From the IMG/VR virus record IMGVR_UViG_3300035126_001036, positions 62,001-126,000 of that record: a DNA stretch of 64,000 bases. One strand, 5' to 3'. Below the pieces are notes generated by a model. It saw only the letters and a list, made by a program, of their open reading frames with translations, did not search any database and was not told where the DNA came from. The position numbers and the translations under genes are program-made. Of this stretch, positions 5,090-21,524 are shown piece after piece. Every line of letters starts with the position of its first letter. Within the stretch, counting starts at the first letter, position 1. This DNA is from an uncultured virus (IMG/VR IMGVR_UViG_3300035126_001036) (lineage: Duplodnaviria; Heunggongvirae; Uroviricota; Caudoviricetes).

Positions 5090-5108
5090 TTATTAAACCA
5101 TTAAACAA

Positions 5109-6130: not shown

Positions 6131-6202
6131 CTGGCACAAGCACCCGACCAGACCCACTAATCCTGCTGTATTCTACACTTGTCGTTAAGGGATTTTTACC
6201 CC

Positions 6203-6874: not shown

Positions 6875-6951
6875 CACCTGAATAACTGGCACAAGACCCA
6901 CCACCACCAGACCATTCTAGCCTTACAATAATCACAGTTCAAAAAAACACC

Positions 6952-7766: not shown

Positions 7767-7770
7767 TATA

Positions 7771-8416: not shown

Positions 8417-8482
8417 ACTGTCCACTGACCTACCACCAACAATTAATTCTCTTTTATACTGATCTCAGTTCAACCAATTCCT

Positions 8483-8836: not shown

Positions 8837-8915
8837 CACTTCCCAAACTGTCCACTGATCCACCCAAACCAGCCCACCATCCATCATAATAAGGAAGTCC
8901 CAAGCAAATCACACT

Positions 8916-9101
8916 ATGGACAACGAACTTTATTCTTTCTCTCTTGCGCTTCATGGAAATGATCTTAATGCAATGATTCCATGGCTTTGTAATTTTTGGG
9001 CGCAGCATTACAATTTTCTTGTTGATCTTCCTATTTTTGAGGAATATGAGCAAGAATGGTTCCGGCAACAATACAATTTCAACAAAATCTACGATTGCTG
9101 A
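8916..9101 (+). CDS. hypothetical protein
   Basis: After family-A promoter. Confidence 0.55.
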   Translation: MDNELYSFSLALHGNDLNAMIPWLCNFWAQHYNFLVDLPIFEEYEQEWFRQQYNFNKIYDC

Positions 9102-9252
9102 TGTCTTTCATTCTTGCCTCTGATATTCAAACCCAGCAAACTATCTGGGTTGCTTATAAGGATGAAGAAATGTGTCTTTTTCGTGGCGATCCGGTGACTG
9201 CGACTGCAGTACAACTGGCAAATCACTATTCGGTTCTTTATTCCCAAGATAA

Positions 9253-9477
9253 ATGATCAAATCAATTGAATCTATCACTCCACGAGATAATCACTTCATC
9301 GTGGAGGCAATTATTGAGGATGGAGTAATGGTTTCTGGGGCCACAATTTATGATCCACCAGAATATGCAGATTGTATCTGTCGTGCAGAAATTTCTCTTC
9401 TTGAAGAAGAGATTACAATTGATATTCTTGAAGAAATGGATATTGAATGGGTGCCAATTGATGATCGGGACTGGTGA
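9253..9477 (+). CDS. hypothetical acidic protein
   Basis: 74 aa, DPPEY motif. Confidence 0.6.
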   Translation: MIKSIESITPRDNHFIVEAIIEDGVMVSGATIYDPPEYADCICRAEISLLEEEITIDILEEMDIEWVPIDDRDW

Positions 9478-10025
9478 TGAAAATTGATCTTTCTAAGTTT
9501 GTAGGTCAAGAAGTAGAGGCAACTCTACAATGTGGAGAAAAAATTGTCGGAGTCGTGACTTATGAAATCAGCTATAGAGAAACTGAACTTAATTATAAAG
9601 TTGGACTGAAAATTTTTGATACATTTACTGTTGATGGTTTTTATCAGTCTGATCGTTGCCCATTCTCTCCATGCAACATTATCAAAATTAAACCCATGAA
9701 AAAGTATCAAAAACTAGAGCAACAAGTCGAGGATCTTCAAAAAGAAATTGAACGACTGAAAGAAGAAGAAAAAGAGAATACACTCCCTAAACATTTTATA
9801 CTAGATCATGCCCTGTCATTCTTAGATTGTCCAAATTTTTTGGATCTTGTCAATATGTTTACATGGCATAGTTCACCCCAAGGTCAGGTTTATTGGGAGG
9901 ACCTTTATAGTGAAATGAATAATTATCAATCTGAATCAGGTGACAATCCTGATTATAAAGTACCGGACGAGGCTATTATTCAGATTCAAAAATGGGTGAT
10001 TGAATTTTATAGAAATAAGCTATGA
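9474..10025 (+). CDS. hypothetical protein with central coiled coil
   Basis: 183 aa; KLEQQVEDLQKEIERLKEEE. Confidence 0.65.
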   Translation: MMKIDLSKFVGQEVEATLQCGEKIVGVVTYEISYRETELNYKVGLKIFDTFTVDGFYQSDRCPFSPCNIIKIKPMKKYQKLEQQVEDLQKEIERLKEEEKENTLPKHFILDHALSFLDCPNFLDLVNMFTWHSSPQGQVYWEDLYSEMNNYQSESGDNPDYKVPDEAIIQIQKWVIEFYRNKL

Positions 10026-10132
10026 TAATCTCTCTCTGCTCTTTATAATATGCCAGTCACCAAACTGGCACAAGCGCCAACCTCTGACCACCTTCCTAGA
10101 CTTACAATAGTCTCAGTTCAACCAAACCAGCC

Positions 10133-10618
10133 ATGAAAAAAACCATTAACGGAAAAGAGTACACTATTGGATGGGGCGCCGATCTTCGGAACGCCAATCT
10201 TGTGGGCGCCAATCTTGTGGATGCCGATCTTCAGGACGCCAATCTTCGGTGGGTCAATCTTGTGGGTGCCGATCTTGAGGGCGCCAATCTTCGGTGGGTC
10301 AATCTTGTGGGTGCCGATCTTGAGGGCGCCAATCTTCGGGGAGCCGATCTTCGGGGCGCCTATCTTCGGGACGCCAATCTTGTGTACGCCTATCTTCGGG
10401 GCGCCAATCTTGAGGGCGCCAATCTTGTGGATGCCGATCTTGAGGGTGCCAATCTTGTGGGCGCCAATCTTCGGTACGCCAATCTTGAGGGCGCCAATGT
10501 AAAGAATACAATTCTTGAAAAGAAAGAAGTTCTTGATGATAAGGACAAGAAAATTCAGGAATTAGAAAAAGAACTTAAAGAACTTAAAAACAAAATTAAG
10601 TCCCTTTTGGACACCTGA
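10133..10618 (+). CDS. pentapeptide repeat protein with C-terminal coiled coil
   Basis: About 22 A(D/N)Lxx pentapeptides; 15-bp DNA periodicity 10177-10500. Confidence 0.92.
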   Translation: MKKTINGKEYTIGWGADLRNANLVGANLVDADLQDANLRWVNLVGADLEGANLRWVNLVGADLEGANLRGADLRGAYLRDANLVYAYLRGANLEGANLVDADLEGANLVGANLRYANLEGANVKNTILEKKEVLDDKDKKIQELEKELKELKNKIKSLLDT

Positions 10619-10693
10619 ATAACTGGCACAAGCGCCAGACTCACCAGACTATTCTACCTGCTACAATAACCTCAGTTCAGGGACACCCCTATC

Positions 10694-12166
10694 ATGCAAC
10701 TTTCACCCCAGCAGTCTGTCGCCATTAACGAAGTCGAGAGTGGGAAGGGATCGATTATACTTTCTGCCGTCGCGGGTGCTGGTAAGACAAGCACGCTGAT
10801 TGAAATGTTAAAAGTAACAAAAGGCACCACCGCCTTTTGTGCATTCAATAAGGCAATTGCAAAAGAAATTGAATGTAAAGTAAACCAACAGAATATCAAT
10901 AAAGATGTAAAGGTGGGCACTGTTCATAGTTTCGGTTTTGGTGCTCTTAGAAGGGCCTATTCCAGAATCAGTGTAGACGGAAATAAGTTACAAAATCTGG
11001 CCAGGGAAGAATTTAATAATGAGCACGAAATCCTGCGCCCATTTGTGACATCTGCTGTTGCAATGGCCAAAGAAGTCGGAATCGGTGCATGTATCGACGA
11101 TGATTATAATAATTGGACCCAGATGTTTGATCATTATGATCTGTGGGATAATCTGCCGACCACTGTTTCTGATGATACTGCTGTAGATGCGTGTCAATAT
11201 CTTCTTAGTATCTCTAACCAGATTACAAGTGTGGTGGATTTTGCAGACATGATTTATCTGCCGATTCGCAACAGGCTCAAAATCTGGCAGTACGATTATA
11301 TTTTTCTTGATGAGGCCCAAGATACTAATGCAACTCGCAGGGCATTAGTTAAAATGATGCTTAAAAAGTCTGGTAGGCTTATTGCGGTTGGTGATCCACA
11401 TCAGGCAATTTATGGATTTACGGGCGCCGATTCTAATGCCCTGGATCTAATCAAGAAAGATTTTAATGCAGTTGAGCTGCCTCTTTCTGTGACATTCCGC
11501 TGCCCCAAAAATGTAGTAAAAGAGGCCCAAAAATTTGTTTCGCATATTGAATCTCACCCCGATTCCCCGGATGGAATTGTAGACGAATGTACCCTAAAAG
11601 ATCTCGCCAAACTTGTAATTCAAGAGGATGCAATCATCTGCCGCAATACTAAGCCTCTTGTGGAGGTTGCTTATAATCTTATCCGAAACAAAATTCCTTG
11701 TAAGGTAGAAGGAAGAAAGATCGGTGAAGGTCTAATCAAACTTGCAACAAGGTGGAAGGTAAACACCGTCAAGACCCTGATCAATAAGTTAGAAATTTAT
11801 AAGGAAAAAGAGATTCAAAAGTATAAAGAAAAAGGAAATGATACCAAGTGTCAGGTAATCGAGGATCAGGTAGAAACACTTATGGTCTTTATTGATCAGT
11901 GTGCATTTGATGATCCTATTTCTACTCTAATCAATAAGATTCGGGAATTGTTTGATGATACCGAGAATAAAAAGATTCTTGTATTGTCCACGATTCATAG
12001 GTCCAAAGGTAGGGAATGGAATCGAGTATTCTCCCTGGGAATGAATCATTATTCTCCGTCCAAATGGGCCAAACAGGACTGGGAATTACAACAAGAAGAT
12101 AATCTTCTTTATGTTCAGGTAACTCGCGCAAAGCACCATCTGACCAAGGTTATTGTAGAGGATTGA
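10694..12166 (+). CDS. UvrD/Rep-family SF1 DNA helicase
   Basis: AVAGAGKT (Walker A), DEAQD, VGDPHQAIYGF, STIHRSKGREW, YVQVTRAK. Confidence 0.9.
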   Translation: MQLSPQQSVAINEVESGKGSIILSAVAGAGKTSTLIEMLKVTKGTTAFCAFNKAIAKEIECKVNQQNINKDVKVGTVHSFGFGALRRAYSRISVDGNKLQNLAREEFNNEHEILRPFVTSAVAMAKEVGIGACIDDDYNNWTQMFDHYDLWDNLPTTVSDDTAVDACQYLLSISNQITSVVDFADMIYLPIRNRLKIWQYDYIFLDEAQDTNATRRALVKMMLKKSGRLIAVGDPHQAIYGFTGADSNALDLIKKDFNAVELPLSVTFRCPKNVVKEAQKFVSHIESHPDSPDGIVDECTLKDLAKLVIQEDAIICRNTKPLVEVAYNLIRNKIPCKVEGRKIGEGLIKLATRWKVNTVKTLINKLEIYKEKEIQKYKEKGNDTKCQVIEDQVETLMVFIDQCAFDDPISTLINKIRELFDDTENKKILVLSTIHRSKGREWNRVFSLGMNHYSPSKWAKQDWELQQEDNLLYVQVTRAKHHLTKVIVED

Positions 12167-12279
12167 TTATAAGAGAGATCCCTTCCTTTTTATAATGTGC
12201 CAGTCACCAAACTGGCACAACCACCAGACTCACCAGACCATTCTACCTGCTACAATAACCTCAGTTCACAACCACTCAA

Positions 12280-12564
12280 ATGAACACCCTAGAACTTCGC
12301 CGCCAACGTGTGAGTCAACTGATTAAAGAGGGGAGGGTTATGAATGACACCCTTAGGCGCAAGAACAAAATTAAAGTCGCCCACGAACAAAAAGTAGAAC
12401 AAATGGCCGATGTTATTCTGAGGCAACTGGCCACTAATTCCACACCAATTCGCAAGGTAACACCAATCAAACAAAATGCACCTGAGGCAAATGTTTTCTT
12501 GAAAACAAATGCAAAAACCGATAAACTCGCAATTAAGGCAGCAAAAATTATTCAAGAACTATGA
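12280..12564 (+). CDS. hypothetical basic protein
   Basis: After family-A promoter. Confidence 0.65.
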   Translation: MNTLELRRQRVSQLIKEGRVMNDTLRRKNKIKVAHEQKVEQMADVILRQLATNSTPIRKVTPIKQNAPEANVFLKTNAKTDKLAIKAAKIIQEL

Positions 12565-12880
12565 ATTATTATCCTCCAGATGCAACTGTTCAAATCCGCC
12601 GAACAAGAATTAAAGGCAGTTGCAGATAAGTATGGATTTGATCTTAGATTGGTAGATGATAATAAAGGTACTTGGTATTTCTATCCTGAAATTTATTCTG
12701 TTTGATTATGAAATCTTCCCATGATTTGAAACTCGTTTATATGTTAGACGAGGCAGTTTCTTCAATGAAAAAAGGCGAGGGGATTAGGAGTGGTTTTTAT
12801 TTACGTGCGGCATACAATTATGTTCATGGAATAAACTCTAACGAGGTAGAAATTGCTCTTGAAAATTACTATTCTTGATT

Positions 12881-13108
12881 ATGAACAATTGGATCCCAGT
12901 AAATGTCCAACCACCAATAGATCCTGAATATAATTATGCTGATGAATGGCGATCTGTGGAAGTTATTTTCACTGATGGAAAAGGACAATGGATTGGTTAT
13001 CAGCAAGTTGAACTTGAAATGGGAGCAGATTATTGGATAATGAAAGGTCCTGATGGTTATGACGTTGAAAATGTGACTCATTGGAAAATGTTAGACAGCT
13101 TCCCATAA
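12881..13108 (+). CDS. DUF551-like protein
   Basis: WIPV..PP N-terminus and VTHW C-terminus. Confidence 0.55.
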   Translation: MNNWIPVNVQPPIDPEYNYADEWRSVEVIFTDGKGQWIGYQQVELEMGADYWIMKGPDGYDVENVTHWKMLDSFP

Positions 13109-13143
13109 AAGGGATTCTTTCACTTTTTCTCGATCCCAGACCG

Positions 13144-13722
13144 CTACCCTTCCTCCTGTCGAATCTGATGAAGGATTTTTTTTAAACCTCTCTGATTCGC
13201 GTACATATCCATCAATTCTGTAACCATTTCATCTATAAAGTCAAATTCTTTACCCTGATAGGCTCCTTTTATCACTGCTGCCTTATAAAAAAGTTTCAAT
13301 TCGGCCACTAATTTATCGGATAGGATGGATTCTTTTTCCAGATCATTTATCATTTCCGGTCTGGTGCGTGGCCGCCCCATCTTATGATCCTTTTTAACGC
13401 GGTATTTATCTACGCTTATGATATTTTCCAGTGAATTATCGTAAACATCATCTGATCTGTGAATGAAGTATTTTCTATGATTACTTTTAGGAATAAAAAG
13501 TTTCCCTACCAGTATATGCACGTAAAAGGCTCTTGTTACACCATTCTTTCCACATAGTATAACTTTGTTATAACTGGGACCTATTCCACTCTTAAAAAAT
13601 GCTTTCTTTTTTAGTCCTTTATTTTTCTGTCTGTTGGAATATACATTCCCATGAATATCTACAAAATACCCTGAGAAATCTTCAAGACCTTCTATTTTAG
13701 AGACTTCTTTTAGATTGTTCAT
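13144..13722 (-). CDS. HNH/NUMOD4-like homing endonuclease-related protein (possibly degenerate)
   Basis: YFVDIHGNVYS...YVHILVGKLFIP...IHRSDDVYDNSLENI; AATAAATA late promoter and AGGA RBS upstream on minus strand. Confidence 0.55.
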   Translation of the reverse strand: MNNLKEVSKIEGLEDFSGYFVDIHGNVYSNRQKNKGLKKKAFFKSGIGPSYNKVILCGKNGVTRAFYVHILVGKLFIPKSNHRKYFIHRSDDVYDNSLENIISVDKYRVKKDHKMGRPRTRPEMINDLEKESILSDKLVAELKLFYKAAVIKGAYQGKEFDFIDEMVTELMDMYANQRGLKKILHQIRQEEG

Positions 13723-13844
13723 TGTTATAATTCCTTAACCTAGTTATTTATTTTTATGGCAGTCTAAAATTTGGGCAAATATACGTCCTTACGGCAATTT
13801 TTTAGTATTCGTGTATAATATATTTGTACTATTTGTATTATTTT

Positions 13845-14066
13845 GTAGTATATCTGTATTATTTTGTTTTTATGTAGTAGTATATCTGTATTATTTTATA
13901 TTTTATAATTTAGTCTTTTTTATGTCTGTATTATTTTATATTTTAGTCTTTTTTATGTAGTAGTATATCTGTATTATTTTATATTTTATAATTTAGTCTT
14001 TTTTATGTAGTAGTATATCTGTATTATTTTATATTTTATAATTTAGTCTTTTTTATGTAGTAGTAT
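13845..14066. repeat. AT-rich tandem repeat, 50-bp unit
   Basis: TATGTAGTAGTATATCTGTATTATTTTATATTTTATAATTTAGTCTTTTT at 13871, 13954 and 14004; 33-bp deleted unit at 13921; partial units at both ends. Confidence 0.9.
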
Positions 14067-14487
14067 TGGCCTGCATAAAATACACAACCCACAATTATAT
14101 CATAAAAAACAGAAAAGATCATAAAAAACAGACACTTTCGCAACTGTCCACCACATAAAGATGCTAAATATAATTGTGATAAGAATTGTTTTTTATAATG
14201 AACACCCAGGAATCATTGATTCGGTCACTGTTCTAAACAAAAGACAATTGTTCTCTCTTTATTATAAACCTCTTACATACTCCTACGGGATAAAGTATTA
14301 AAGTTTATAAGAAAGTCGAACATCGTTTATTATACAATAAAATACTAGGTTTGCCCCAGTTTGGATAAAAAATCCAAAAATCTTTAGGGGTATTTGTTGT
14401 ATGTGTCACTTTATGAACTGTCCACTGGTGACCACTGGGACCGGTTCTTATGGGTTACACTGTATGAGTCAACCAAAGGATTCACCA

Positions 14488-14724
14488 ATGGCCCGAGAAA
14501 AGTATATTATCGAGGTTCGTGATCAAGATGGGAAACTTGATTTTGGTTCTCAAGAACTAAGGCGAAAAGAGCATCCTTATTTGTTCTCTAAACCTGAGTT
14601 TACTATTGATGAACTTTGTTATTATGCTTCTTATGGTCAACAAAGAAACAATCCATCCGGCCCTATGCAGTTGGGTCAATTTATGAACCAAATTGGTATT
14701 TCTTATCGGCTAAAAACTTGGTAA
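14488..14724 (+). CDS. hypothetical protein
   Basis: ATG 14488 with AAGGA RBS after promoter at 14402. Confidence 0.65.
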   Translation: MAREKYIIEVRDQDGKLDFGSQELRRKEHPYLFSKPEFTIDELCYYASYGQQRNNPSGPMQLGQFMNQIGISYRLKTW

Positions 14725-14730
14725 GTTAAT

Positions 14731-14762
14731 AAAATTCTTGGGTTATACCCAGGGATTTTTAT
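14731..14762. terminator. intrinsic terminator, probably bidirectional
   Basis: AAAATTCTTGGGT-TAT-ACCCAGGGATTTTT. Confidence 0.6.
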
Positions 14763-14785
14763 TGTTTTTATAAACTTATAAAATT

Positions 14786-14826
14786 GCAGGAGTAGTTTCT
14801 AGTTTTGTATAAACACGCCCCTGCGT
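14786..14826 (-). ncRNA. candidate multicopy sRNA, conserved core copy 1
   Basis: 41-bp conserved element; minus-strand TATACT at 14834-14839. Confidence 0.55.
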
Positions 14827-14956
14827 TGTTTATAGTATAATCTATAAAAACCTTAATCGTGACTGATGGTGTGCCAGTTACATAAGTGTCACAAGGTCCT
14901 GACCAGTCACGCATTATCTCCCTTATAATAAGCTAGTCATTACACCATTATCGTCA

Positions 14957-15166
14957 ATGGAATTTCTTAAATTAACCGATTGGCAAACTCGTGAGCCAGT
15001 TTACCTAGATCCAAATAAAATACTCTTTATTCAGCAAATAGCCGAACATGATGATTATCCTCGACGCACTCGTATAGACATTATTGGCAGTTCCCAGATT
15101 TTTCTTGTTTCGGAAGATGCTGACCAGATAGCTCTTGTTAGTGGTAGGGGGTTTCAGGATATTTAA
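14957..15166 (+). CDS. hypothetical protein
   Basis: After promoter 14870. Confidence 0.65.
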   Translation: MEFLKLTDWQTREPVYLDPNKILFIQQIAEHDDYPRRTRIDIIGSSQIFLVSEDADQIALVSGRGFQDI

Positions 15167-15218
15167 TAAAAACCAATTTCACCACATCTTATAATAAACC
15201 AGTCAACACAAAAACACC

Positions 15219-15419
15219 ATGACTCAAATCACTCTAACCTCTGGTGAAATCCTGGATATTATTTCAGTCTTGTGTGATAAAGAGCAGGCAGTTTATGATA
15301 ATGACCCGCATCTGTCGGCTTATTATCTGAACATGGTTCAACAATTCGAGGCTGTTTATAATAAACTCCAAGAATTGCCTGGTGAAAAAAGAGTTGCAAA
15401 CCTTATTCTGGCTGCCTGA
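15219..15419 (+). CDS. hypothetical protein
   Basis: 66 aa; C-terminus homologous to relic at 3824-3890. Confidence 0.65.
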   Translation: MTQITLTSGEILDIISVLCDKEQAVYDNDPHLSAYYLNMVQQFEAVYNKLQELPGEKRVANLILAA

Positions 15420-15603
15420 ATTATGATTATCATTTACCGTGCTAATCAGTGGGAGTTGTTTCGTGCTCCCAGGATATAAACGAGGCCTGGGAGCTGGCGG
15501 TTAAATTAACTTTGGAATCTGGCGTTCAGCATTACGTTGGGCGGGTCTAAAAATATAAAGGAGAGATTTATTCTCTCTTTTCTTTTTATAATAATAAAAA
15601 ATT

Positions 15604-15644
15604 GCAGGAGTAGTTTCTCGTTTTATGTAATAACGCCCTTGCGC
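15604..15644 (-). ncRNA. candidate multicopy sRNA, core copy 2
   Basis: Conserved element; minus-strand TATAAT at 15666-15671. Confidence 0.55.
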
Positions 15645-15665
15645 TTGTGTGGTTGTCTTAAGACC

Positions 15666-15780
15666 ATTATAACGCCTCTGGCGGGCTCCTAGGGGCCTCT
15701 GGTGGTCAGTATGAGTTATCAGTCCCATAAGCACCGCTGATCATAAAATGCTTGCATAGGGCTTCTAGATGCCGTATTCT
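15666..15780. promoter_or_regulatory. divergent promoter, family B (tandem LysR-type 15-mers)
   Basis: GTCAGTATGAGTTAT 15705 and ATAAGCACCGCTGAT 15727; -10 boxes 33 bp away on each side. Confidence 0.7.
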
Positions 15781-15808
15781 ATGGAAGTCGTCAAGGGAAC
15801 ACCAACCC

Positions 15809-15994
15809 ATGAGCAACCCCTACATCGCCAACGGATTCGCCAACCGCGAGGAGTATCTTGATTCTCTCCGTGAAGAATACGGGGGATTGGTTGATATTCT
15901 CTCGGATCTTCTTGGTCCAGAAGAAGATTTTGACGGACTGGTTACAGATTTGGAAGATGCAATGGATTCTGGAGAGTATGATGATTTGATCTAA
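15809..15994 (+). CDS. small acidic hypothetical protein
   Basis: MSNPYIANGFANREEYLDSLREEYG...EDFDGLV; paralog at 18053. Confidence 0.75.
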   Translation: MSNPYIANGFANREEYLDSLREEYGGLVDILSDLLGPEEDFDGLVTDLEDAMDSGEYDDLI

Positions 15995-16029
15995 AAATTT
16001 GTCCCGTATTCTTTATTCTTTCAAATTCA

Positions 16030-16191
16030 ATGAATACCCTTCTTCTAATTGTCCCAACTACTTTAGATGTTTCATTGTTTGGGGCAAAATCTTTCTTCAC
16101 TGATGGTAAAAAATGCTGGGAGCATTTAATCAATGGTAAAAAAGGTAAACGGATAAACAAACCAGATTGGTATAGTTTACCACTAGATTGA
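16030..16191 (+). CDS. hypothetical protein (53 aa)
   Basis: Read by hand; followed by terminator hairpin 16203-16224. Confidence 0.45.
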   Translation: MNTLLLIVPTTLDVSLFGAKSFFTDGKKCWEHLINGKKGKRINKPDWYSLPLD

Positions 16192-16246
16192 TATAAACAC
16201 TTGAGGGATAATTCCCTCTTTTTTGTTTTTATAATAATATAAAATT

Positions 16247-16287
16247 GCAGGATTAGTGTCTAGTTTTGTATAATCACGCCCCTGCGT
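16247..16287 (-). ncRNA. candidate multicopy sRNA, core copy 3
   Basis: Conserved 41-bp element. Confidence 0.5.
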
Positions 16288-16367
16288 TAGTTAAGTTTTA
16301 GATTAAACATTCAAGGTTTTTCTCCCTTGGTATGAACATAGTCTAGCAGGTTTTTATGGAATTTGGT

Positions 16368-16443
16368 ATTAGGGTTGCTTATCTGTCACATAAAATCCTC
16401 TTATCGTTTAATGGTTGCTAGGGGGTGATGGGTCTGTTATTGT
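16368..16443 (+). promoter_or_regulatory. family B promoter (tandem LysR-type 15-mers)
   Basis: ATTAGGGTTGCTTAT 16368 and ATAAAATCCTCTTAT 16390; TATTGT 33 bp downstream. Confidence 0.65.
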
Positions 16444-16470
16444 ATGGGAGTCGTTAGGCAATCAACCGCC

Positions 16471-16986
16471 ATGACTCGCATCACTGGTTCCCAACTTGTT
16501 GCTCTCGTTGATACTCTCACGGCAGAGGGTAAGACGCGATCCGAGATTTGTCGTGCGGCTGGTTATATTGGACAAAAGGAAGATGGTAGTGAGCGTCTAC
16601 ATTTTACCGCGTTTTATGAGGCCCTAATTGAGGCAAAGGGTGGCCCAGAACAACTGAATAATAATGAAGATGATGAGTGGGATTATACTCATCCAAGTGT
16701 TGATGAAGAATATATGGAAATTTATAATGATTTGTGCGATCAGTATACCCAGCAGGCAGTAGATTTCTTTCTAACGTCTTGGTGTGATGTAGACCTGGAA
16801 GATTTTAGTGATTATTATATTGGTTATTATGATTCCGAGGCAGAATTTGCCGAAGAAATAATGACCGAAGTTTATTGCATAGACATTCCTAGTCAGATTA
16901 TTGTAGATTGGCAGGCAACATGGGATACTAGTTTGCAGTACGATTTCTACTTTATGAGTGGTTATGTGTTCCGGAATTGTATATAA
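16471..16986 (+). CDS. AbrB-like N-terminal domain fused to ArdA-like antirestriction domain
   Basis: ITGSQL...AGY...DGSERLHFTAFYEALIEAKG, then acidic YIGYYDSEAEFAEE..IP..VDWQATW..GYVFR. Confidence 0.7.
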   Translation: MTRITGSQLVALVDTLTAEGKTRSEICRAAGYIGQKEDGSERLHFTAFYEALIEAKGGPEQLNNNEDDEWDYTHPSVDEEYMEIYNDLCDQYTQQAVDFFLTSWCDVDLEDFSDYYIGYYDSEAEFAEEIMTEVYCIDIPSQIIVDWQATWDTSLQYDFYFMSGYVFRNCI

Positions 16987-17069
16987 TATGCCACTCTAAC
17001 AACTGGCACAAGGGGACTGTTTATGGTTCCCTTTCCACCTTATACTAAGCAAGTCAACCGGACACGATC

Positions 17070-17321
17070 ATGCAAACCACCATCCAACACACTGATAACG
17101 AAGGGTCCACCCCGGTTTGGATCACTTGGTTTTCACAATCCGATTGTGATGAGTATAATGAAGCCGAAGGATTGCGTGAAACTTCTGGTGATAATTTGTA
17201 TGAACCAGGTTACTATTGGGTAGTTTGTTCGCCTGGTTGTATTCCTGATTCTGAGTTTTTTGGCCCATTTGTTACAACTGAAGAGGCCGAAGATAATGCT
17301 AATGAGGTATTGAATTATTGA
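17070..17321 (+). CDS. hypothetical acidic protein
   Basis: GYYW..C.PGCIPDS..FGPF motif; after promoter 16987. Confidence 0.7.
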   Translation: MQTTIQHTDNEGSTPVWITWFSQSDCDEYNEAEGLRETSGDNLYEPGYYWVVCSPGCIPDSEFFGPFVTTEEAEDNANEVLNY

Positions 17322-17387
17322 TAATTCGTATAAAAGAGTTAGTTAATTCTGACTCTTTTTTGTTGTTTTTTATAATAATAAAAAAGT

Positions 17388-17428
17388 GCAGGATAAGTGT
17401 CTCGTTTTATGTTATCACGCCCCTGCGT
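17388..17428 (-). ncRNA. candidate multicopy sRNA, core copy 4
   Basis: Conserved element; minus-strand TATACT 17449-17454; terminator 17332-17361. Confidence 0.55.
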
Positions 17429-17570
17429 TAATTTGTTTTGTTGTTTATAGTATAATCCATAAAAACCTTAATCGTGACTGATGGTGTGCCAGTTCCATAA
17501 GTGTCACAAGGCCCTGACCACTAACCCATTCTCTCCCTTATACTAATCCAGTCAACCAGACAATTCTCCA

Positions 17571-17954
17571 ATGGCCACTATCTCTGACAAAATAGCCAAA
17601 CAACTTGAGGAGATTGAAAATAGGGCTTATAAGGAAATTGATGCAATTGCAGAACAATACTTTGAATCAACTGTTGTTCCATTCTGTAAAGAGAATGATC
17701 TAACTTTTGTGGTAGGTATGGGTAAGATATTCTTTTGTAATGAGAAATATGATCTGAGTTTCCATGAGTCTGACGAGATTCCAGATGTTAATGAGGATCT
17801 TTTAGAGCTAGACGAAGATGATCTTTATCCTTGTGAAAAATATGCTTTAGAGCACCCATTGGCCAAGGAAAAACTAAGAGAGATTTTCGATGTTCTTAAC
17901 ATTATAGTTTTCAAGTTTGAGTTTGGTTTTAGTGTTCCTAACTTCCAAGGATAA
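17571..17954 (+). CDS. hypothetical acidic protein
   Basis: After promoter 17485. Confidence 0.7.
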   Translation: MATISDKIAKQLEEIENRAYKEIDAIAEQYFESTVVPFCKENDLTFVVGMGKIFFCNEKYDLSFHESDEIPDVNEDLLELDEDDLYPCEKYALEHPLAKEKLREIFDVLNIIVFKFEFGFSVPNFQG

Positions 17955-18052
17955 TTATTTTAATTGTGCCAGTTGTTTAAGTGGCACAAGGTACGGTGAT
18001 CGTCTGGTTTTTATGGGTTACAGTTGACTAGTCAACCAAGGGAACGCCTCTC

Positions 18053-18252
18053 ATGTCTTGCCCCTATCAGAACAACGGTTTTGCTAATCGTGGGGAGTAT
18101 CTTGATAATTTGCGCGAAGAATATGGTAGCCTAGTTGATGTTCTGACCAACATCTTGCCCCTAGTGAAGATTTTGATGGGCTAGTTACAGAACTGGAAGA
18201 CGCTATGGATTCTGGGGGATATGACGAAAAAGAATTTCTCACCTTGATCTAG
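18053..18252 (+). pseudogene. frameshifted paralog of 15809-15994
   Basis: MSCPYQNNGFANRGEYLDNLREEYGSLVDVLTNILP continues as SEDFDGLVTELEDAMDSGGYD only after a shift at the C-run 18158-18161. Confidence 0.75.
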
Positions 18253-18286
18253 TTAATTTACCAACTTTCCTTCATTCTTTATAGTT

Positions 18287-18466
18287 ATGTCTGTCACACT
18301 TAGCGGTTATTGTATTCGCATGGCTTTACTTGATCGCCGTAGAGAATTGATCCGGTGCGCGTCTATCACTAAAGATGCTACTTTTGATTCTAAGATTAAA
18401 GAATTGGATGATGCATTGGTTCAACTTTGGTACGCAAAGGAAATTATACTAACTGAAGTAGTATAA
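18287..18466 (+). CDS. hypothetical protein (59 aa)
   Basis: Read by hand; followed by terminator. Confidence 0.5.
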   Translation: MSVTLSGYCIRMALLDRRRELIRCASITKDATFDSKIKELDDALVQLWYAKEIILTEVV

Positions 18467-18470
18467 AAAA

Positions 18471-18510
18471 CAGTGACCCGCGAGTTCTTTATACTTACGG
18501 GTCACTTTTG
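18471..18510. terminator. intrinsic terminator, probably bidirectional
   Basis: AGTGACCCG...CGGGTCACT with flanking A and T tracts. Confidence 0.7.
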
Positions 18511-18536
18511 TTTAGTATAAAAAATAGTATAAAAAA

Positions 18537-18577
18537 GCAGGATAAGTGTCTCGTTTTATGTTATTGCGGTCCTCCGC
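18537..18577 (-). ncRNA. candidate multicopy sRNA, core copy 5
   Basis: Conserved element; minus-strand TTGACA-17-TATACT (18627..18599). Confidence 0.6.
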
Positions 18578-18598
18578 TTGTTTTCTTTTGTTGTTTAT

Positions 18599-18713
18599 AG
18601 TATAAAACACTTTTCCAGTATTGTCAAGCATTTTATGATTAGTGTTGCTTATCAATCCCATAAGCACCGCTGATCGTTAAAGGCTTGACCTAGTGGGGCT
18701 GATCTGGTATTCT
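18599..18713. promoter_or_regulatory. divergent promoter, family B
   Basis: ATTAGTGTTGCTTAT 18638 and ATAAGCACCGCTGAT 18660; -10 boxes 33 bp away on both sides; TTGAC -35 boxes on both strands. Confidence 0.75.
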
Positions 18714-18737
18714 TTAAAGGTAATCGGGTTTCACCCC

Positions 18738-19181
18738 ATGACTGTTTCATTCGTTGATTTTGCAGCTTTCCAGGATGCTCAGAATAAAATTCAATTGAAT
18801 GTCAGGAAGTATTGTCTCCAGTTGATTGATGCCCTGAAGGATAATTATCGGAATTATGCTATTCGCGGACATCAAATTTTCATCGATAGGGAAGAATCAG
18901 TTGAGTATCATCAATCTTGTATTGATAAACTGAAAGAGGGACATTCCGACATTGATTATGAAATTGAGTCGGGTAGTAAGTATCACAAAATCATTATGAT
19001 TTCTTATGGTGGATCACGTTCGGTTCATTGTTTTGTTGATAAAAAGACCGGGGAAGTTTATAAATCAGCAAGCTGGAAATCCCCCGCTAAAGGTATTCGA
19101 TTTGATCTGCGATTGATCAAAGATCGTGAATGGTTGTTTGAAAATGCCGATTGGAGTGGTGGTTATCTTTACAAGAGATGA
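18738..19181 (+). CDS. conserved phage hypothetical protein
   Basis: GSKYHKI...SVHCFVDKKTGEVYKSASWKSPAK; ATG 18738. Confidence 0.75.
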   Translation: MTVSFVDFAAFQDAQNKIQLNVRKYCLQLIDALKDNYRNYAIRGHQIFIDREESVEYHQSCIDKLKEGHSDIDYEIESGSKYHKIIMISYGGSRSVHCFVDKKTGEVYKSASWKSPAKGIRFDLRLIKDREWLFENADWSGGYLYKR

Positions 19182-19243
19182 ATCGAATAATTATAAGAAT
19201 CCTTCGGGATTCTTTTTTATTGTTTATAGTGTATTATTAAAGT

Positions 19244-19284
19244 GCAGGATAAGTGTCTCGTTTTATGTTATTGCGGCCTTCCGC
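19244..19284 (-). ncRNA. candidate multicopy sRNA, core copy 6
   Basis: Conserved element; minus-strand TTGACA-17-TATACT; UUCG terminator hairpin 19195-19218. Confidence 0.6.
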
Positions 19285-19305
19285 TTGTTTTCTTTTGTTG
19301 TTTAT

Positions 19306-19400
19306 AGTATAAAACACTTTTCCAGTATTGTCAAGCCCTGGACCCATAAGCATTTCTGATCGTTTGGGGTCTTGACGGATCGGCCTGGGTCTGCAATACT
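19306..19400. promoter_or_regulatory. divergent promoter, family B (single 15-mer)
   Basis: ATAAGCATTTCTGAT 19346-19360 with -10 boxes 34 bp away on each side. Confidence 0.7.
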
Positions 19401-19424
19401 TAAAGGGTCAAAGGGATTCACCCC

Positions 19425-19742
19425 ATGAAAGACTACCGCCCTGAAGTCCGCAGCCTGCTTAAGTCCCTCAAACGGGCCGGATTTACACCTTTGAGTGTAA
19501 ACAATGGAGAGGAAAATATTCGATATTCGGATGTATCCAAGACTGAGTTCTTGGAGGAAACTGTGGCTACAGACGAATCCACATTGCGGCTTCAACATAA
19601 CAATAAAAAGGTGGCAATCTTCCTGGTTCTGGGTAATGAACCCGGTGTAATCGCCGCCGATTATACTGATTACGAACCGTTGCAGGAAGTAATCGACGCG
19701 CATTATGATCGGTGGGAGAATAAGAAACAGCCAACCTGCTGA
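19425..19742 (+). CDS. hypothetical protein
   Basis: 105 aa, LVLGN..G.IAADY. Confidence 0.7.
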   Translation: MKDYRPEVRSLLKSLKRAGFTPLSVNNGEENIRYSDVSKTEFLEETVATDESTLRLQHNNKKVAIFLVLGNEPGVIAADYTDYEPLQEVIDAHYDRWENKKQPTC

Positions 19743-19810
19743 TTATAATCAACCACCTGGAGGTTTTATACTTCCAGGTTTTTTTTTGTTTTTTATAATA
19801 ATATAAAAGT

Positions 19811-19851
19811 GCAGGATAGGTGTCCTGTTTTATGTTATCACGCTTTTGCGT
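19811..19851 (-). ncRNA. candidate multicopy sRNA, core copy 7
   Basis: Conserved element; minus-strand TTGACT-17-TATACT; terminator 19755-19787. Confidence 0.55.
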
Positions 19852-19873
19852 TTTGTTTTCTTTTGTTGTTTAT

Positions 19874-19988
19874 AGTATAGCAGCAGTGCCCCATAAAGTC
19901 AAGGTTTTATTCATAAACATATTTTATCAGACCCATAAGCACCGCTAATCGTTAAAACCTCGCCACTAGCCTCTAGAGCTGCTACACT
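19874..19988. promoter_or_regulatory. divergent promoter, family B
   Basis: ATAAACATATTTTAT 19913 and ATAAGCACCGCTAAT 19935; -10 boxes 33 bp away each side. Confidence 0.7.
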
Positions 19989-20013
19989 ATGGGAGCAGTC
20001 AAGGGAACAACCC

Positions 20014-20415
20014 ATGATCAAACTCACCGGAACCGCTCTCCTGGCCCACCGTGAGGCCCGCCGTGCTGCTGGTGTCAGCAATGCTATCATTGTTCGCTCT
20101 GCTGGTTATATTGGAACCCGCAAGGATGGCAGCGAGCGGCTACAATTTACCGAGTATTATGAGAATGTTCTCATTGCCAAAGGTGAAATGTTCCGCATTA
20201 AAATAGACGTGGCCGAGATTACCCCAGCCGGACTACAGCCCGTGTGGGGATATTCGTTCACTACGACTACTAAAAACCACCAGAGTATTGCCCGTAAAGT
20301 GCGGGAACTGACTCAACTTACCAATGTTAAATGTAATCGAACTGTCAAAGATGGGGTGGTTCGTTTACAGCCCAAGGGAACGAATGAAATGATTGCTTAT
20401 ACTTTGCCTGCATGA
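20014..20415 (+). CDS. AbrB-like N-terminal domain protein
   Basis: KLTGTALL...AGYIGTRKDGSERLQFTEYYENVLIAKG; homologous to the N-terminus of 16471. Confidence 0.65.
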   Translation: MIKLTGTALLAHREARRAAGVSNAIIVRSAGYIGTRKDGSERLQFTEYYENVLIAKGEMFRIKIDVAEITPAGLQPVWGYSFTTTTKNHQSIARKVRELTQLTNVKCNRTVKDGVVRLQPKGTNEMIAYTLPA

Positions 20416-20492
20416 GTTAATAACAATCAGTGGCCCTAGAGTTCTTTATACTCTGGGGTCTTTATTTGTTCTTTATACTTTATTATTTTATG

Positions 20493-20534
20493 GCAGATTA
20501 AGTGTCTTGTTTTATATCATTGCGGCGCCCCCGC
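20493..20534 (-). ncRNA. candidate multicopy sRNA, core copy 8 (divergent)
   Basis: GCAGATTAAGTGTCTTGTTTTATATCATTGCGGCGCCCCCGC; minus-strand TAGTAT at 20556-20561. Confidence 0.5.
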
Positions 20535-20555
20535 TCTTTTTATTTTGTTGAAACA

Positions 20556-20682
20556 ATACTAAGACGGATCAGGCCAGGCCACTGTATCGGCTGATACCAA
20601 ACGGCCATCAGCGTATCTTATCAGTCGAATCCTGGAAACGGTAGCGGTTGATACAGAACGGCGAGCCGAAACGTGGGATTAT
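20556..20682. promoter_or_regulatory. divergent promoter with two NtcA-type boxes (GTA-N8-TAC)
   Basis: GTATCGGCTGATAC 20584-20597 is 22 bp from minus-strand TAGTAT; GTAGCGGTTGATAC 20641-20654 is 22 bp from GATTAT. Confidence 0.65.
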
Positions 20683-20711
20683 TAAAGGGTCAAACAAACG
20701 GAGCCGATCCG

Positions 20712-21119
20712 ATGACAACCGCCACTCTCAACCGTTACACTCTCAACTGGGAAGCCTACTCTACGTGGCCGCCTGCTGATGATGACATCGGTGGAATCTA
20801 CACCGATTGTGTACATTTTAGCACTGTCGATGATTATAATTTTGCGGTATCATTCCACATCGGTGAGGGTAGGCAACAGGGCTTGCTTTTCTGTGAGGTT
20901 GTTATGGTTTATCCTAACCGGATTGATACCAATAAGTTGCATTATTGTATGGGGCAGTTTTATAAAAACAGTGGCGCAAAATTGTTTGCCCAATTTGCTC
21001 TGAACCACTTTATCGAGACGGAAACGTGGAGCGTATGCCCATCATTTCAGCCGGTTGATTATATCGACGGCGAACCTTATACTCTCGGCGGTGATGAGAT
21101 CGTGAGCGAAATTATCTGA
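20712..21119 (+). CDS. hypothetical protein
   Basis: ATG 20712 with GGAG RBS. Confidence 0.65.
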   Translation: MTTATLNRYTLNWEAYSTWPPADDDIGGIYTDCVHFSTVDDYNFAVSFHIGEGRQQGLLFCEVVMVYPNRIDTNKLHYCMGQFYKNSGAKLFAQFALNHFIETETWSVCPSFQPVDYIDGEPYTLGGDEIVSEII

Positions 21120-21190
21120 GTTAGGTACATCAGGGGAGGGCACAGTCTCTCCCCTGATTCTCTCAAACCTCCTATCTCCCAGTGTTAACA

Positions 21191-21424
21191 ATGGCCACAG
21201 AATACGCCACTCCAGCAGACTTCCAACGGTGGGAAGATCATGCTAAAGTGTTAGATTGTTACAGTCTGGTTCATGTTATCAAAGACTGTCAATCTGCGGC
21301 CCGCAATATGAAGGGATGGAATGATGTAAGGGAAGGTTACTACATCGACCAGGCCTGTACTTATGGGATGGAGCTAACACGTAGGAACCGACAATTGCCT
21401 GCTGGTTTGCGTCATCGAGTCTGA
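21191..21424 (+). CDS. hypothetical protein
   Basis: ATG 21191; EGYYIDQACTYGMELTRR. Confidence 0.65.
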   Translation: MATEYATPADFQRWEDHAKVLDCYSLVHVIKDCQSAARNMKGWNDVREGYYIDQACTYGMELTRRNRQLPAGLRHRV

Positions 21425-21495
21425 CACAGTTAGTATCACGAACTCACCCCTAATCTTCGTGGGTTCGTGATATTATTACAGTTTATTACGAGCAG

Positions 21496-21524
21496 TTGAC
21501 AGTATGGGCGGGGTGTGGTATGAT
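21496..21524 (+). promoter_or_regulatory. strong sigma70-type promoter (TTGACA-17-TATGAT with TG extension)
   Basis: Consensus match; no ORF for about 280 bp downstream. Confidence 0.7.

Follow-up and report, generated by a model that had tools for sequence, protein, structure and literature searches.

The window, as we call the whole stretch of 64,000 nucleotides analyzed here, belongs to record IMGVR_UViG_3300035126_001036, a T4-like cyanomyovirus; among phages in culture, its closest relatives are B3 and B23, both from lakes. Among its early genes lie eight copies of a 41-bp non-coding element, all on the plus strand in the same orientation, starting at 14786, 15604, 16247, 17388, 18537, 19244, 19811 and 20493. 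The copies had been reported at these starts in a first-pass annotation, and all were recovered by a search with a degenerate 25-nt pattern (at most 3 mismatches allowed), for which 0.04 matches are expected by chance in the window; none of 100 shuffles reached eight. With this pattern the full 138,809-bp record gave the same eight forward matches, no reverse match and no match outside the eight-copy cluster, and a reversed-pattern control over the record gave 0 matches. The copies are spaced 567-1149 bp apart and are not tandem. Each lies 22-32 nt downstream of the plus-strand terminator hairpin of the upstream gene, into which the minus-strand copy had been described as running. The units built around the copies, with their neighboring parts, are as follows.

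14723..14827, minus strand: Unit 1, putative leftward RNA gene; element 14786-14826, hairpin 14815-14826, upstream plus-strand terminator 14731-14759, minus -10 TATACT 14834-14839; predicted start ~14827, which would put the hairpin at the extreme 5' end of the RNA; presumed 3' end at the shared terminator
14870..14897, no strand assigned: palindromic box (repeat family D7) between Unit 1 and the next gene; plus site 14885 with TATAAT at 29 nt, minus site 14878 with TATACT at 29 nt
15549..15659, minus strand: Unit 2, putative leftward RNA gene; element 15604-15644, hairpin 15633-15644 (one position pairs as G.U in the minus-strand reading and is A.C in the plus-strand reading), terminator 15557-15581, minus -10 TATAAT 15666-15671
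16195..16333, minus strand: Unit 3, putative leftward RNA gene; element 16247-16287, hairpin 16276-16287, terminator 16203-16218, minus extended -10 TGC-TAGACT 16340-16345, lying ~50 nt farther out from its hairpin than elsewhere in the array
17324..17442, minus strand: Unit 4, putative leftward RNA gene; element 17388-17428, hairpin 17417-17428, terminator 17332-17359, minus -10 TATACT 17449-17454, 29 nt from a minus-oriented ACTGGCACAC box
17485..17512, no strand assigned: palindromic box (repeat family D7) between Unit 4 and the gene 17571-17954; plus site 17500 and minus site 17493, both with TATACT at 29 nt
18465..18592, minus strand: Unit 5, putative leftward RNA gene; element 18537-18577, hairpin 18566-18577, terminator ~18473-18505 with 7 T in 8 in the minus-strand tail beyond it, minus promoter TTGACA-17-TATACT 18627-18599
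18537..19244, plus strand: cassette between Units 5 and 6, containing the DUF7717 gene 18738-19181 (Pfam)
19187..19299, minus strand: Unit 6, putative leftward RNA gene; element 19244-19284, hairpin 19273-19284, terminator 19195-19214, minus promoter TTGACA-17-TATACT 19334-19306; predicted fold of the 113-nt RNA, a 5' hairpin, then a long unpaired stretch, then the terminator hairpin
19747..19867, minus strand: Unit 7, putative leftward RNA gene; element 19811-19851, hairpin 19840-19851, terminator 19755-19779, minus promoter TTGACT-17-TATACT 19902-19874, with TG preceding the -10
20424..20549, minus strand: Unit 8, last of the array, putative leftward RNA gene; element 20493-20534, hairpin 20522-20534 (5-nt loop), terminator 20432-20460, minus -10 TAGTAT 20556-20561, with neither -35 nor TGn, which makes it the weakest of the eight promoters

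In related records the unit is present in 3 to 10 copies apiece, confined to one ~6-kb early-gene cluster, and covariance-model searches of whole records gave 8 matches in G000, 8 in G001, 3 in G006, 3 in G007 and 7 in phage B3, in one cluster and on one strand of each record. The clade in which the unit recurs at every early-gene cassette boundary consists of large T4-like cyanomyoviruses that infect freshwater picocyanobacteria. For comparison we used 57 distinct unit copies; since these are related by descent and gene conversion, the counts given over them are not counts of independent events.

The hairpin varies in sequence and keeps its pairing. In the window its stem is ACGC/GCGT in copies 1, 3, 4 and 7, GCGG/CCGC in copies 5, 6 and 8, and GCGC...GCGU with a minus-strand G.U pair in copy 2, while the loop, read on the minus strand, is AGGG, AAGG, AGGA or AAAA; the stem and loop variants had been assigned correctly in the first-pass annotation. 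Phage B3 has further, unrelated stems (GAGC/GCTC, AGCC/GGCT and AGGT/ACCT). In a MAFFT alignment of the 57 copies 92.9% of the hairpin cells are paired and none of 500 shuffles matched the covariation score, a check among homologs that had been proposed earlier; in a model-fitted alignment 98.3% of 232 hairpin cells are paired. The outer pair is G-C in 25 copies, A-U in 18 and G-U in 10, and the inner pair C-G in 27, G-C in 24 and A-U in 1. The stem is only 4 bp long (4-5 bp across units), and its main types may have arisen from few substitution events. From 29 long minus-strand sequences RNAalifold predicted the element hairpin and no other structure. A second candidate stem, CAGGA/UCCUG, was found unsupported (75.7% pairing, and one pair disrupted in 33 of 56 rows).

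Wobble pairs and hairpin energies favor the minus strand as the one on which the hairpin would form. Read on that strand the hairpin cells contain 14 wobble and 16 unpaired cases, against 4 and 26 on the plus strand, and in all eight well-aligned rows with a single non-Watson-Crick pair this pair is a minus-strand G.U. The hairpin energy is lower as minus-strand RNA in 44 of the 57 copies, with a mean of -5.47 vs -4.44 kcal/mol on the plus strand.

Promoter motifs point in the same direction. The arrangement TTGAC(A/T)-17-TATACT, noted previously in three copies, was found at copies 5, 6 and 7, where it makes up the three best promoter-like sites of the minus strand in 14300-21500 (match scores of 11, 11 and 10 of 12). 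A minus-strand -10 had been counted in seven copies; the boxes are present, and the count is to be raised, as a TAnnnT box was found for all eight, that of copy 3 lying ~50 nt further right with a TGn extension. The predicted starts (14827, 15659, 16333, 17442, 18592, 19299, 19867 and 20549) agree with those suggested before. When the 96 nt right of the hairpin were scanned in all 57 copies, a strong minus-sense promoter was found in 36 vs 0 in the plus-sense control: TTGAC[ATG]-17/18-TAnnnT in 17 copies with 12 different spacers and TGnTAnnnT in a further 19, with 0 and 0 plus-sense occurrences of a full -35/-10 or of TGnTAnnnT in the same stretches. The other 21 copies have a bare TAnnnT, which is frequent by chance in AT-rich DNA and was likewise found in 47 of 57 plus-sense controls. 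In copies 1 and 4 the -10 lies exactly 29 nt from a minus-oriented phage box, which gives a third promoter type; a minus-sense promoter motif stands beside each copy, and three architectures occur (-35/-10, TGn-extended -10, phage box with -10). The same spacing is used by ~27 gene promoters on the plus strand of this genome; their signal, in which a -10 stands 28-30 nt from a ACTGGCACA box, is separate from the eight-copy unit and different from it in sequence. As judged from their motifs, the unit promoters would rank among the best host-type promoters of the region.

The downstream genes, whose start codons are 171-225 nt from the element, have separate rightward promoters near their starts, which had been overlooked in the first-pass annotation. 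This arrangement bears on an alternative in which the element heads each early cassette on the plus strand as a promoter specific to the phage or as a binding site for a regulator, a unit of the promoter-early stem-loop (PeSL) type, with the AT-rich tract as upstream element, the hairpin as a DNA-level or 5'-end feature, and the leftward promoters as incidental. The copies share the orientation of the genes and sit between a terminator and the next gene; (G/T)TGCAG occupies a -35-like place in 39 of the 57, TAnnnT follows this hexamer of the element after 16 or 18 nt in 40, a TATAnT box lies at most 32 nt upstream of the element in 50, and PeSL elements have the order stem-loop, AT-rich tract, promoter (PMC4122927). 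We nevertheless regard this alternative as unlikely. There is no single -10 register (26/57 in one place, 18/57 in another), position 2 of the hexamer is G in the commoner variant, a full plus-sense -35/-10 is found in 0/57 and a TGn-10 in 4/57, and the predicted start would land inside the hairpin. A protein-binding site would not covary, and the wobbles sit on the opposite strand; the start codons are far off, and the genes' own promoters are nearer. Moreover, two diverged B3 copies (L090 4175 and 5719) lack a usable plus-strand -10, and a search of G000, G001 and B3 for a single-subunit RNA polymerase domain, which had no positive control, gave nothing.

Among the clade of the window, B3 and the G006/G007 clade, conservation extends from the terminator through the minus -10 and ends there. 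On the left, 51 of 54 copies adjoin the terminator of the upstream gene within 21-34 nt. These plus-strand terminators have stems of 6-12 pairs; the 8-nt tail beyond the hairpin holds 5.7 T on average on the plus strand vs 3.8 on the minus strand, where at least 5 T are found in only 16 of 54 copies, and the 3' end of the RNA would be weakly defined. The close association with terminators is also what would be seen if leftward transcription were real and its product had no function in trans, the polymerases sent into the shared terminator, or the antisense RNA they make, serving to stop or destroy upstream read-through; in addition, they may set the supercoiling of the divergent rightward promoter. 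With such insulation it agrees that the unit is always back to back with a rightward promoter, and that at copies 1 and 4 the two directions share a single palindromic box. We consider it quite unlikely, since collision needs neither ~60 nt of transcribed sequence conserved between clades with unalignable flanks nor a covarying hairpin, and the plus-strand terminators already look strong.

On the right of the hairpin, the plus strand of G007 is pyrimidine-rich and not U-rich, and therefore a purine-rich minus-strand leader fits better than a plus-strand terminator tail. Over its first ~47 nt the predicted RNA is purine-rich and has almost no U, a block of 25-30 bp lying downstream is A+T nearly throughout, and an AT-rich tandem-repeat island (13797-14066) stands at the head of the cluster. 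Origins of T4 consist of a promoter and an unwinding element, and these features would suit a primer role, in which each unit is an R-loop origin of the T4 oriF/oriG type with a promoter and then an easily melted AT-rich tract. This role is highly improbable in our view: we know of no precedent for 3-10 origins within 6 kb, an RNA held in a hybrid needs no covarying hairpin, and an A-rich RNA would give weak rA:dT hybrids.

The unit appears to be non-coding, as had been thought: a minus-strand ORF of at least 8 aa is absent from all eight window copies and from 47 of the 57, and plus-strand ORFs show no conservation. The impression that it belongs to no known family was borne out by a search of Rfam, where no similarity to any of 4227 families was found.

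The unit is also a place of recombination, an aspect in which it resembles PeSL elements and which had gone unnoticed before. Record G002 lacks the cassette 18537..19244, with the joint inside the unit; the left flank of its unit is that of copy 5 (300/300) and the right flank that of copy 6 (296/300). Joints inside the unit were found in at least four pairwise comparisons, and cassette order differs among all six related records. In one orthologous unit the flanks are 294/300 and 297/300 identical and the unit itself only 53/62, which indicates gene conversion. As the comparison shows, the repeated unit gives homology for deletion, insertion and exchange of early-gene cassettes. Such joints, conversion and shuffled order are what a functionless repeat would produce if it were kept alike by recombination and gene conversion and mattered only as a seam for cassette shuffling. 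That the unit is nothing else is very unlikely, as homogenization within a genome leaves unexplained its conservation across three clades with diverged flanks, the compensatory stem changes, and the retention of a promoter through 12 spacers and three architectures.

We therefore favor, with a probability of roughly 0.55, a family of ~105-140-nt leftward early non-coding RNA genes within a cassette-boundary module. Of the structured minus-strand RNA of ~100-150 nt per early cassette suggested in the first-pass annotation, the structure, strand and novelty are supported by covariation, wobbles, energies, promoters and the Rfam result, and the RNA itself stands as a candidate predicted from sequence. 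The 41-bp element would be the conserved core of a small minus-strand transcription unit, whose promoter (-35/-10, TGn-extended -10, or -10 at 29 nt from the ACTGGCACA box) would be read by host RNA polymerase. Its leader would be purine-rich with hardly any U and would measure 0-16 nt, or more in copy 3; then would come the G+C hairpin of 4-5 bp, ~55-60 nt of conserved and predicted-unpaired sequence, and the terminator hairpin of the upstream gene as the probable 3' end. Since the promoters seem to be among the best host-type ones of the region, these RNAs would be expected from the first minutes of infection, off 3-10 gene copies at once. The product would act as RNA; most likely, with about half of the weight within this reading, its long unpaired conserved stretch acts in trans by binding or titrating a partner from host or phage, and alternatively it may pair with plus-strand transcripts crossing the module. 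When the phage genome was searched for complementary 11-mers, all matches were of low complexity, and the antisense role proposed earlier for an anti-SD-like tract is weak, the tract varying between copies.

Small regulatory or decoy RNAs of phages, such as RNA anti-CRISPRs and antitoxin mimics, have their own promoter and terminator. The unit is like them in being short and non-coding, in having a promoter of its own and a hairpin together with conserved single-stranded sequence, in its predicted early expression and in its multiple copies, and differs in having no Rfam similarity, no convincing host match and stems that vary between copies. A short hairpin with a conserved flank, an own promoter and several copies are features of the RNA anti-CRISPR and type III antitoxin families, and mimicry of a specific host RNA of this kind (a CRISPR repeat or a type III antitoxin repeat) had been suggested. 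We hold it to be extremely unlikely: mimicry of one repeat is hard to reconcile with stems that differ between copies within one genome, the copies are not in tandem, and when 185,579 prokaryote species (one genome per species) were scanned for the conserved core, no host match was convincing, the 2 matches being single ones without the hairpin in Bacteroidota assemblies, with a strict pattern that diverged repeats would escape.

At the level of the module, the closest comparison is with the PeSL cassettes of the T4-type phages RB49/phi1, T4/PST and KVP40/nt-1 (Comeau et al., 2014, PMC4122927), elements also treated by Arbiol et al. (2010, PMC2839356); marine cyanophage S-PM2 is reported to be without a high PeSL density (PMC4503421). 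The present unit and the PeSL share a short, conserved composite make-up, in which a terminator stem-loop is combined with an AT-rich tract and a promoter, and both recur between small non-essential genes where the genome of a T4-like phage is hyperplastic; in both, insertions, deletions and replacements join at the repeat, here inside the unit. In PeSL a conserved sigma-70-like promoter faces the downstream gene and is followed directly by the Shine-Dalgarno sequence and start codon, whereas the well-supported promoter of the present unit points backward, into a conserved ~60-nt stretch with a covarying hairpin, and the next gene, starting 171-225 nt away, is served by separate promoters.

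A degenerate 25-nt pattern built from the copies of the repeat has eight matches in the 64-kb window, all on the plus strand and starting at 14786, 15604, 16247, 17388, 18537, 19244, 19811 and 20493. Since 0.04 matches are expected by chance and none of 100 shuffles reached eight, the eight copies proposed in the first-pass annotation are all borne out. The same eight are the only matches in the whole 138,809-bp record, of which the window covers bases 62001-126000, the reversed-pattern control gave none, and a repeat finder extends the likeness to 75-98 nt for seven of the copies. The hairpin variants, loops, minus-strand promoter boxes and upstream terminators that the annotation had described in the window copies were found again, and its claim of a minus-strand -10 box near seven copies holds for the box and needs correction for the count, such a box being present at all eight.

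The record belongs to a T4-like cyanomyovirus, with gp6, gp8 and gp25 baseplate proteins, gp15, a T4-type portal, terminase, sheath, tube and giant baseplate-wedge proteins. Its portal shares 82.3% identity with the portal of Synechococcus phages B3 and B23, which are 244-kb phages from a subarctic lake with hosts in the Synechococcus-Cyanobium complex (PMC7171214). The eight copies lie within a 6-kb run of small plus-strand genes, having a UvrD-like helicase gene on one side and baseplate genes on the other, and the giant ORFs in the window have their matches among baseplate and structural families. Ten of the 14 small proteins scanned (14401-21424) have no Pfam or PHROG family, and the matches obtained for early-cluster proteins are one weak ArdA-like anti-restriction match, one DUF7717 and one PHROG with function not assigned. 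The ArdA-like protein (16471-16986; PHROG 36653, E 7.6e-9; Pfam ArdA, E 0.009, under the cut-off) fits a possible anti-defence role of the cassette genes. Two further observations concern this region. An AT-rich tandem-repeat island at 13797-14066 (periods 21, 50 and 83, up to 98% matches) lies where a leftward HNH-like gene (13144-13722) and the rightward early cluster diverge; an analogous island occurs in B3 at L090:1574-1755. Such an island might serve as an origin, as a promoter bank or as a site connected with packaging. The small genes at 18053-18242 and 15809-15994 are paralogous (75-77% DNA identity), and the second copy, with only 43 codons open, appears frameshifted relative to the first.

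For comparison among phages, 96 candidates were collected by a fuzzy pattern from the window and 14 loci, of which 57 distinct copies were kept and 39 dropped by eye for absence of the core. The module around each copy is as follows, in plus-strand order from left to right.

Left end, plus strand: terminator of the upstream gene, located by a hairpin script, stem of 6-12 pairs and T-rich tail
Right of the terminator: near-pure A+T spacer, with a TATAnT box in 50 of 57 copies
Right of the A+T spacer: conserved core of 28 nt
Right of the core: short G+C hairpin
Right of the hairpin: pyrimidine-rich tract
Right of the pyrimidine-rich tract, minus strand: -10 box reading TAnnnT
About 60-90 nt past the minus-strand -10 box, plus strand: the downstream gene's own rightward promoter, then a short leader and the start codon

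Of the 54 copies yielding a terminator hairpin with a T-rich tail, 51 have it at 21-34 nt upstream of the element; three further copies of the 57 gave none by the terminator criteria, and all eight window copies have one. The start codon is 171-225 nt from the element. Among the clade of the window, B3 and the clade of two further related records (G006 and G007), conservation runs from the A+T spacer through the minus-strand -10 box. It ends at the terminator on the left and just past the -10 box on the right, and the terminator sequences and everything right of the -10 box differ among the clades. Many of the plus-strand terminator hairpins share the loop motif TTATAC despite differing stems (14739-14751, 18484-18494, 19765-19772, 20444-20452 and related loci). 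Separately, a conserved block composed of the core CCCATAAGCACCGCTGATCG and a flanking inverted repeat is found at 15716-15801, 16379-16464, 18649-18734 and 19924-20009; it stands between the leftward promoter and a sigma-70-like rightward promoter in five cassettes, possibly as an operator or as an element of the 5' UTR.

In the MAFFT alignment of the 57 copies, 92.9% of the hairpin cells are paired and none of 500 shuffles reaches the observed covariation score, which upholds the covariation of the stem noted earlier from the window copies, on a stem that is short and copies that are related by kinship and not independent. The outer pair is G-C in 25, A-U in 18 and G-U in 10 copies, and the inner pair C-G in 27, G-C in 24 and A-U in one. 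When the partners are slid by 1-3 columns, pairing over both tested stems falls from 83.3% to 32-48%. The unpaired rows are mostly diverged copies with longer loops that MAFFT misaligned; a model-fitted alignment, which leans towards structure, has 98.3% of 232 cells paired. RNAalifold, run without a prior on 29 longer minus-strand sequences chosen for having the -10 box at the usual distance, predicts this hairpin alone. Unrelated stems occupy the position in B3 and in the related record G003 (GAGC/GCTC, AGCC/GGCT, AGGT/ACCT and GAGGC/GCCTC), and one copy of the 57 (L089 2980) has lost the hairpin. The hairpin is thus, judged from these alignments, conserved as structure and not as sequence. 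Copy 7 and several B3 copies have a perfect second stem, CAGGA/UCCUG; over all copies it is 75.7% paired with no real covariation, and it was left out of the model.

Several features point to folding on the minus strand. Read as minus-strand RNA, the hairpin cells include 14 wobble and 16 unpaired, as against 4 and 26 for the plus-strand reading, and all eight well-aligned rows with one non-Watson-Crick pair have G.U on the minus strand, equal to A.C on the plus strand. G.U also falls on the minus strand in the stems at L088 2236 and L089 2407, and in two B3 copies at their optional fifth pair. For 44 of 57 copies, folding energies give the minus-strand RNA the more stable hairpin (mean -5.47 kcal/mol, as against -4.44 for the plus strand). 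Because the copies are related, these counts overstate the number of independent events. The tract to its right, which on the plus strand is U-rich in the clade of the window, is only pyrimidine-rich in G007, and therefore the conserved feature is a purine-rich leader on the minus strand and not a terminator tail. Wobble pairs, hairpin energies and the right-hand tract would all favour the same strand.

Promoters were sought in the minus sense over the 96 nt right of the hairpin in all 57 copies, with identical stretches in the plus sense as control. TTGAC[ATG]-17/18-TAnnnT was found in 17 copies with 12 different spacers, a TGn-extended -10 box in a further 19, and a bare TAnnnT, mostly at the homologous place, in the other 21. 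Strong promoters thus total 36 of 57 in the minus sense, and the control contained neither a full -35/-10 pair nor a TGn-extended -10 box. Copies 5, 6 and 7 carry the three best minus-strand promoter-like sites in 14300-21500 (11, 11 and 10 of 12 matches). Copies 1 and 4 have a third promoter design, in which exactly 29 nt separate TATACT from a minus-oriented ACTGGCACAC box; the same box at the same 29-nt spacing is used by about 27 plus-strand gene promoters of the genome, and at copies 1 and 4 it is a palindrome serving both directions. That a promoter persists through changed spacers and in three architectures is difficult to account for without selection on leftward transcription, as far as sequence comparison can tell. 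Leftward transcription acting solely as an insulator between cassettes would share this promoter evidence and leave the covarying hairpin aside, and we regard it as quite unlikely.

A second and more numerous signal, on the plus strand, is seen in the window (1930-17980) and genome-wide (G000:C1 12489-79980, G000 being the whole record), where a ACTGGCACA(A/C) box, often with GTGACACCTGA ahead and hence partly palindromic, is followed at 28-30 nt by a TATAAT-like box. The signal precedes the start codons of small plus-strand genes by about 20-30 nt, with about 27 plus-strand sites at the spacing, and it looks like a phage-specific promoter class of activator type.

The unit itself could alternatively be a private promoter or protein-binding site acting on the plus strand. 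The TATAnT box of the A+T spacer and a weak (G/T)TGCAG-16/18-TAnnnT in 40 of 57 copies speak for this; in the plus sense a full -35/-10 pair occurs in none of the 57 copies and a TGn -10 box in 4, with no common -10 register across copies, and we consider the explanation unlikely. If true, the unit would be a further private promoter class of these phages, a less surprising result.

Under the leftward reading, transcripts starting about 7 nt past the -10 box and ending at the upstream terminator would be about 105-140 nt long, and the minus-strand starts predicted earlier agree with those computed in this way. In the predicted fold, a short leader rich in purines precedes the hairpin, which is followed by a conserved stretch of about 55-60 unpaired nucleotides and, last, by the terminator hairpin. 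This RNA model is weakest at its 3' end: the 8 nt after the terminator hairpin contain on average 3.8 T on the minus strand (at least 5 T in 16 of 54 copies), compared with 5.7 on the plus strand. No conserved ORF was found on either strand of the unit, in line with the first-pass annotation, and a small-peptide reading was dropped.

We therefore favour, with a probability of roughly 0.55, a family of leftward early non-coding RNA genes within a cassette-boundary module, whose transcription, ends, timing and target we infer from sequence. About half of the weight within this reading goes to an RNA that would act in trans, in which the long conserved stretch, unpaired and poor in U, would bind or titrate a partner from host or phage; alternatively, the RNA would pair with plus-strand transcripts crossing the module. 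When 11-mers of the module were sought elsewhere in the 138.8-kb record, with the copies excluded, 215 hits resulted, nearly all of AT-rich low complexity and none striking, and a search for a phage-encoded Hfq found none.

The distribution of the unit is narrow. Pattern scans of the viral contig collection found it only in related large phage records, and five records searched whole have 8, 7, 10, 5 and 7 matches, in one orientation per record except in G003, where two copies about 185 bp apart are inverted relative to each other (G003:C1:119550-119759, locus L087), the only orientation exception seen. The covariance model, whose E-values are rough, gave 8 matches in the record of the window, 8 in the related record G001 (complete, 249,820 bp), 3 in G006 (complete, 258 kb), 3 in G007 and 7 in B3, forming a single cluster on a single strand in each. 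Among 50,697 GenBank phage records a 96-nt query at E up to 1 matched B3 and B23 only, in a stretch unannotated there; megablast with the 7-kb region gave no match, and model hits in the cultured marine cyanomyoviruses that come next in relatedness (S-SCSM1, S-SM2 and Bellamy) did not rise above noise (at best 15-16 bits, E 0.55-0.95). The unit is not described in the B3/B23 announcement (PMC7171214), in Rfam or in the literature searched, a comparison that stands apart from the Syn9 transcription study (Doron et al. 2016). Rfam release 15 gave no match in the 64-kb window at gathering thresholds, in line with the first-pass annotation, which did not recognise the RNA as a known family, and at E up to 10 the 14300-21000 region gave 12 weak hits to 12 different, unrelated families, none recurring across copies. 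In one genome per prokaryote species, the strict core pattern, which diverged CRISPR repeats would escape, had two single Bacteroidota hits, without hairpin and outside arrays. Mimicry of a CRISPR repeat or an antitoxin seems to us extremely improbable.

The unit is also a recombination seam, judging from flank comparisons in which joints of insertion, deletion and exchange fall at it. Cassette order and content differ among all six records (the window and five relatives); the single-linkage cassette clustering chains unrelated segments (clusters A and C), and only order differences were used. One unit of the related record G002 has the left flank of window copy 5 (300/300) and the right flank of copy 6 (296/300), and therefore the DUF7717 cassette is missing from G002 and the joint lies inside the unit. 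Copy 6 and a G001 unit have the left flank (298/300) and the unit (62/62) in common and not the right flank (182/300). Only the right flank is common between copy 7 and G001 (290/300; left 168/300) and between copy 5 and G003 (294/300; left 147/300). Copy 4 and its G001 orthologue agree in both flanks (294/300 and 297/300), with the unit identical at only 53/62 and its hairpin allele swapped, which indicates conversion between copies. A functionless repeat kept alike through recombination would account for such conversion, and not for unrelated stems retaining their pairing; we think it very unlikely.

To our knowledge, little of the transcription control or of the non-coding RNA repertoire of T4-like cyanophages has been mapped, and the organisation and shuffling of their hypervariable early regions are still to be explained. 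The locus offers a concrete and testable unit, strongly supported by comparison through covariation, a strand-specific promoter in three architectures and sharp conservation boundaries, and it is also present in two cultured phages, B3 (7 copies) and B23. If the RNA is real, this would be a multi-copy family of phage small RNAs made at the very start of infection. More tentatively, a clade of freshwater cyanophages may have amplified an undescribed early small RNA family to 3-10 gene copies, with a U-poor single-stranded body that titrates or guides a host factor (ribonuclease, RNA-binding protein or defence sensor) during takeover; the RNA genes would double as seams shuffling anti-host early genes, so that RNA dosage and early-gene repertoire would evolve together.

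An integron cassette array with attC sites was rejected, as the search for an integron integrase (tyrosine recombinase, PF00589) gave no match in the record, in the complete G001 or in B3, and the same search matched 14 of 14 control genomes. N4-type hairpin promoters are template-strand hairpins read by a virion single-subunit RNA polymerase; the search for PF00940 gave no match in these three genomes, nor in any control. At the T4 origins oriF and oriG, the transcript of a promoter remains hybridised within an unwinding element further downstream and serves to prime replication. What the sequence shows of the unit is a comparable layout of a promoter, a predicted purine-rich transcript and an AT-rich block, and a leftward transcript serving as R-loop primer is, in our estimate, of very low probability.

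The closest likeness of the favoured RNA-gene module is to the promoter-early stem-loops (PeSLs) of T4-type phages, in which insertion, deletion and exchange joints fall at the repeat, a footprint matched by the flank comparisons here (PMC4122927). Both have a terminator-type stem-loop just upstream of the conserved unit, a layout of stem-loop and AT-rich tract, a hyperplastic setting among small genes mostly without assigned family, and a role as shuffling seam. The PeSL promoter, however, is an early, sigma-70-like one and faces the downstream gene, followed by a Shine-Dalgarno sequence and start codon; the present unit lacks a promoter facing and abutting the downstream gene, which is the defining feature of PeSLs, and is therefore not filed as one. 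If the RNA is real, the PeSL principle of regulatory repeats as shuffling seams would extend to cyanophages, with the repeat itself being a gene.
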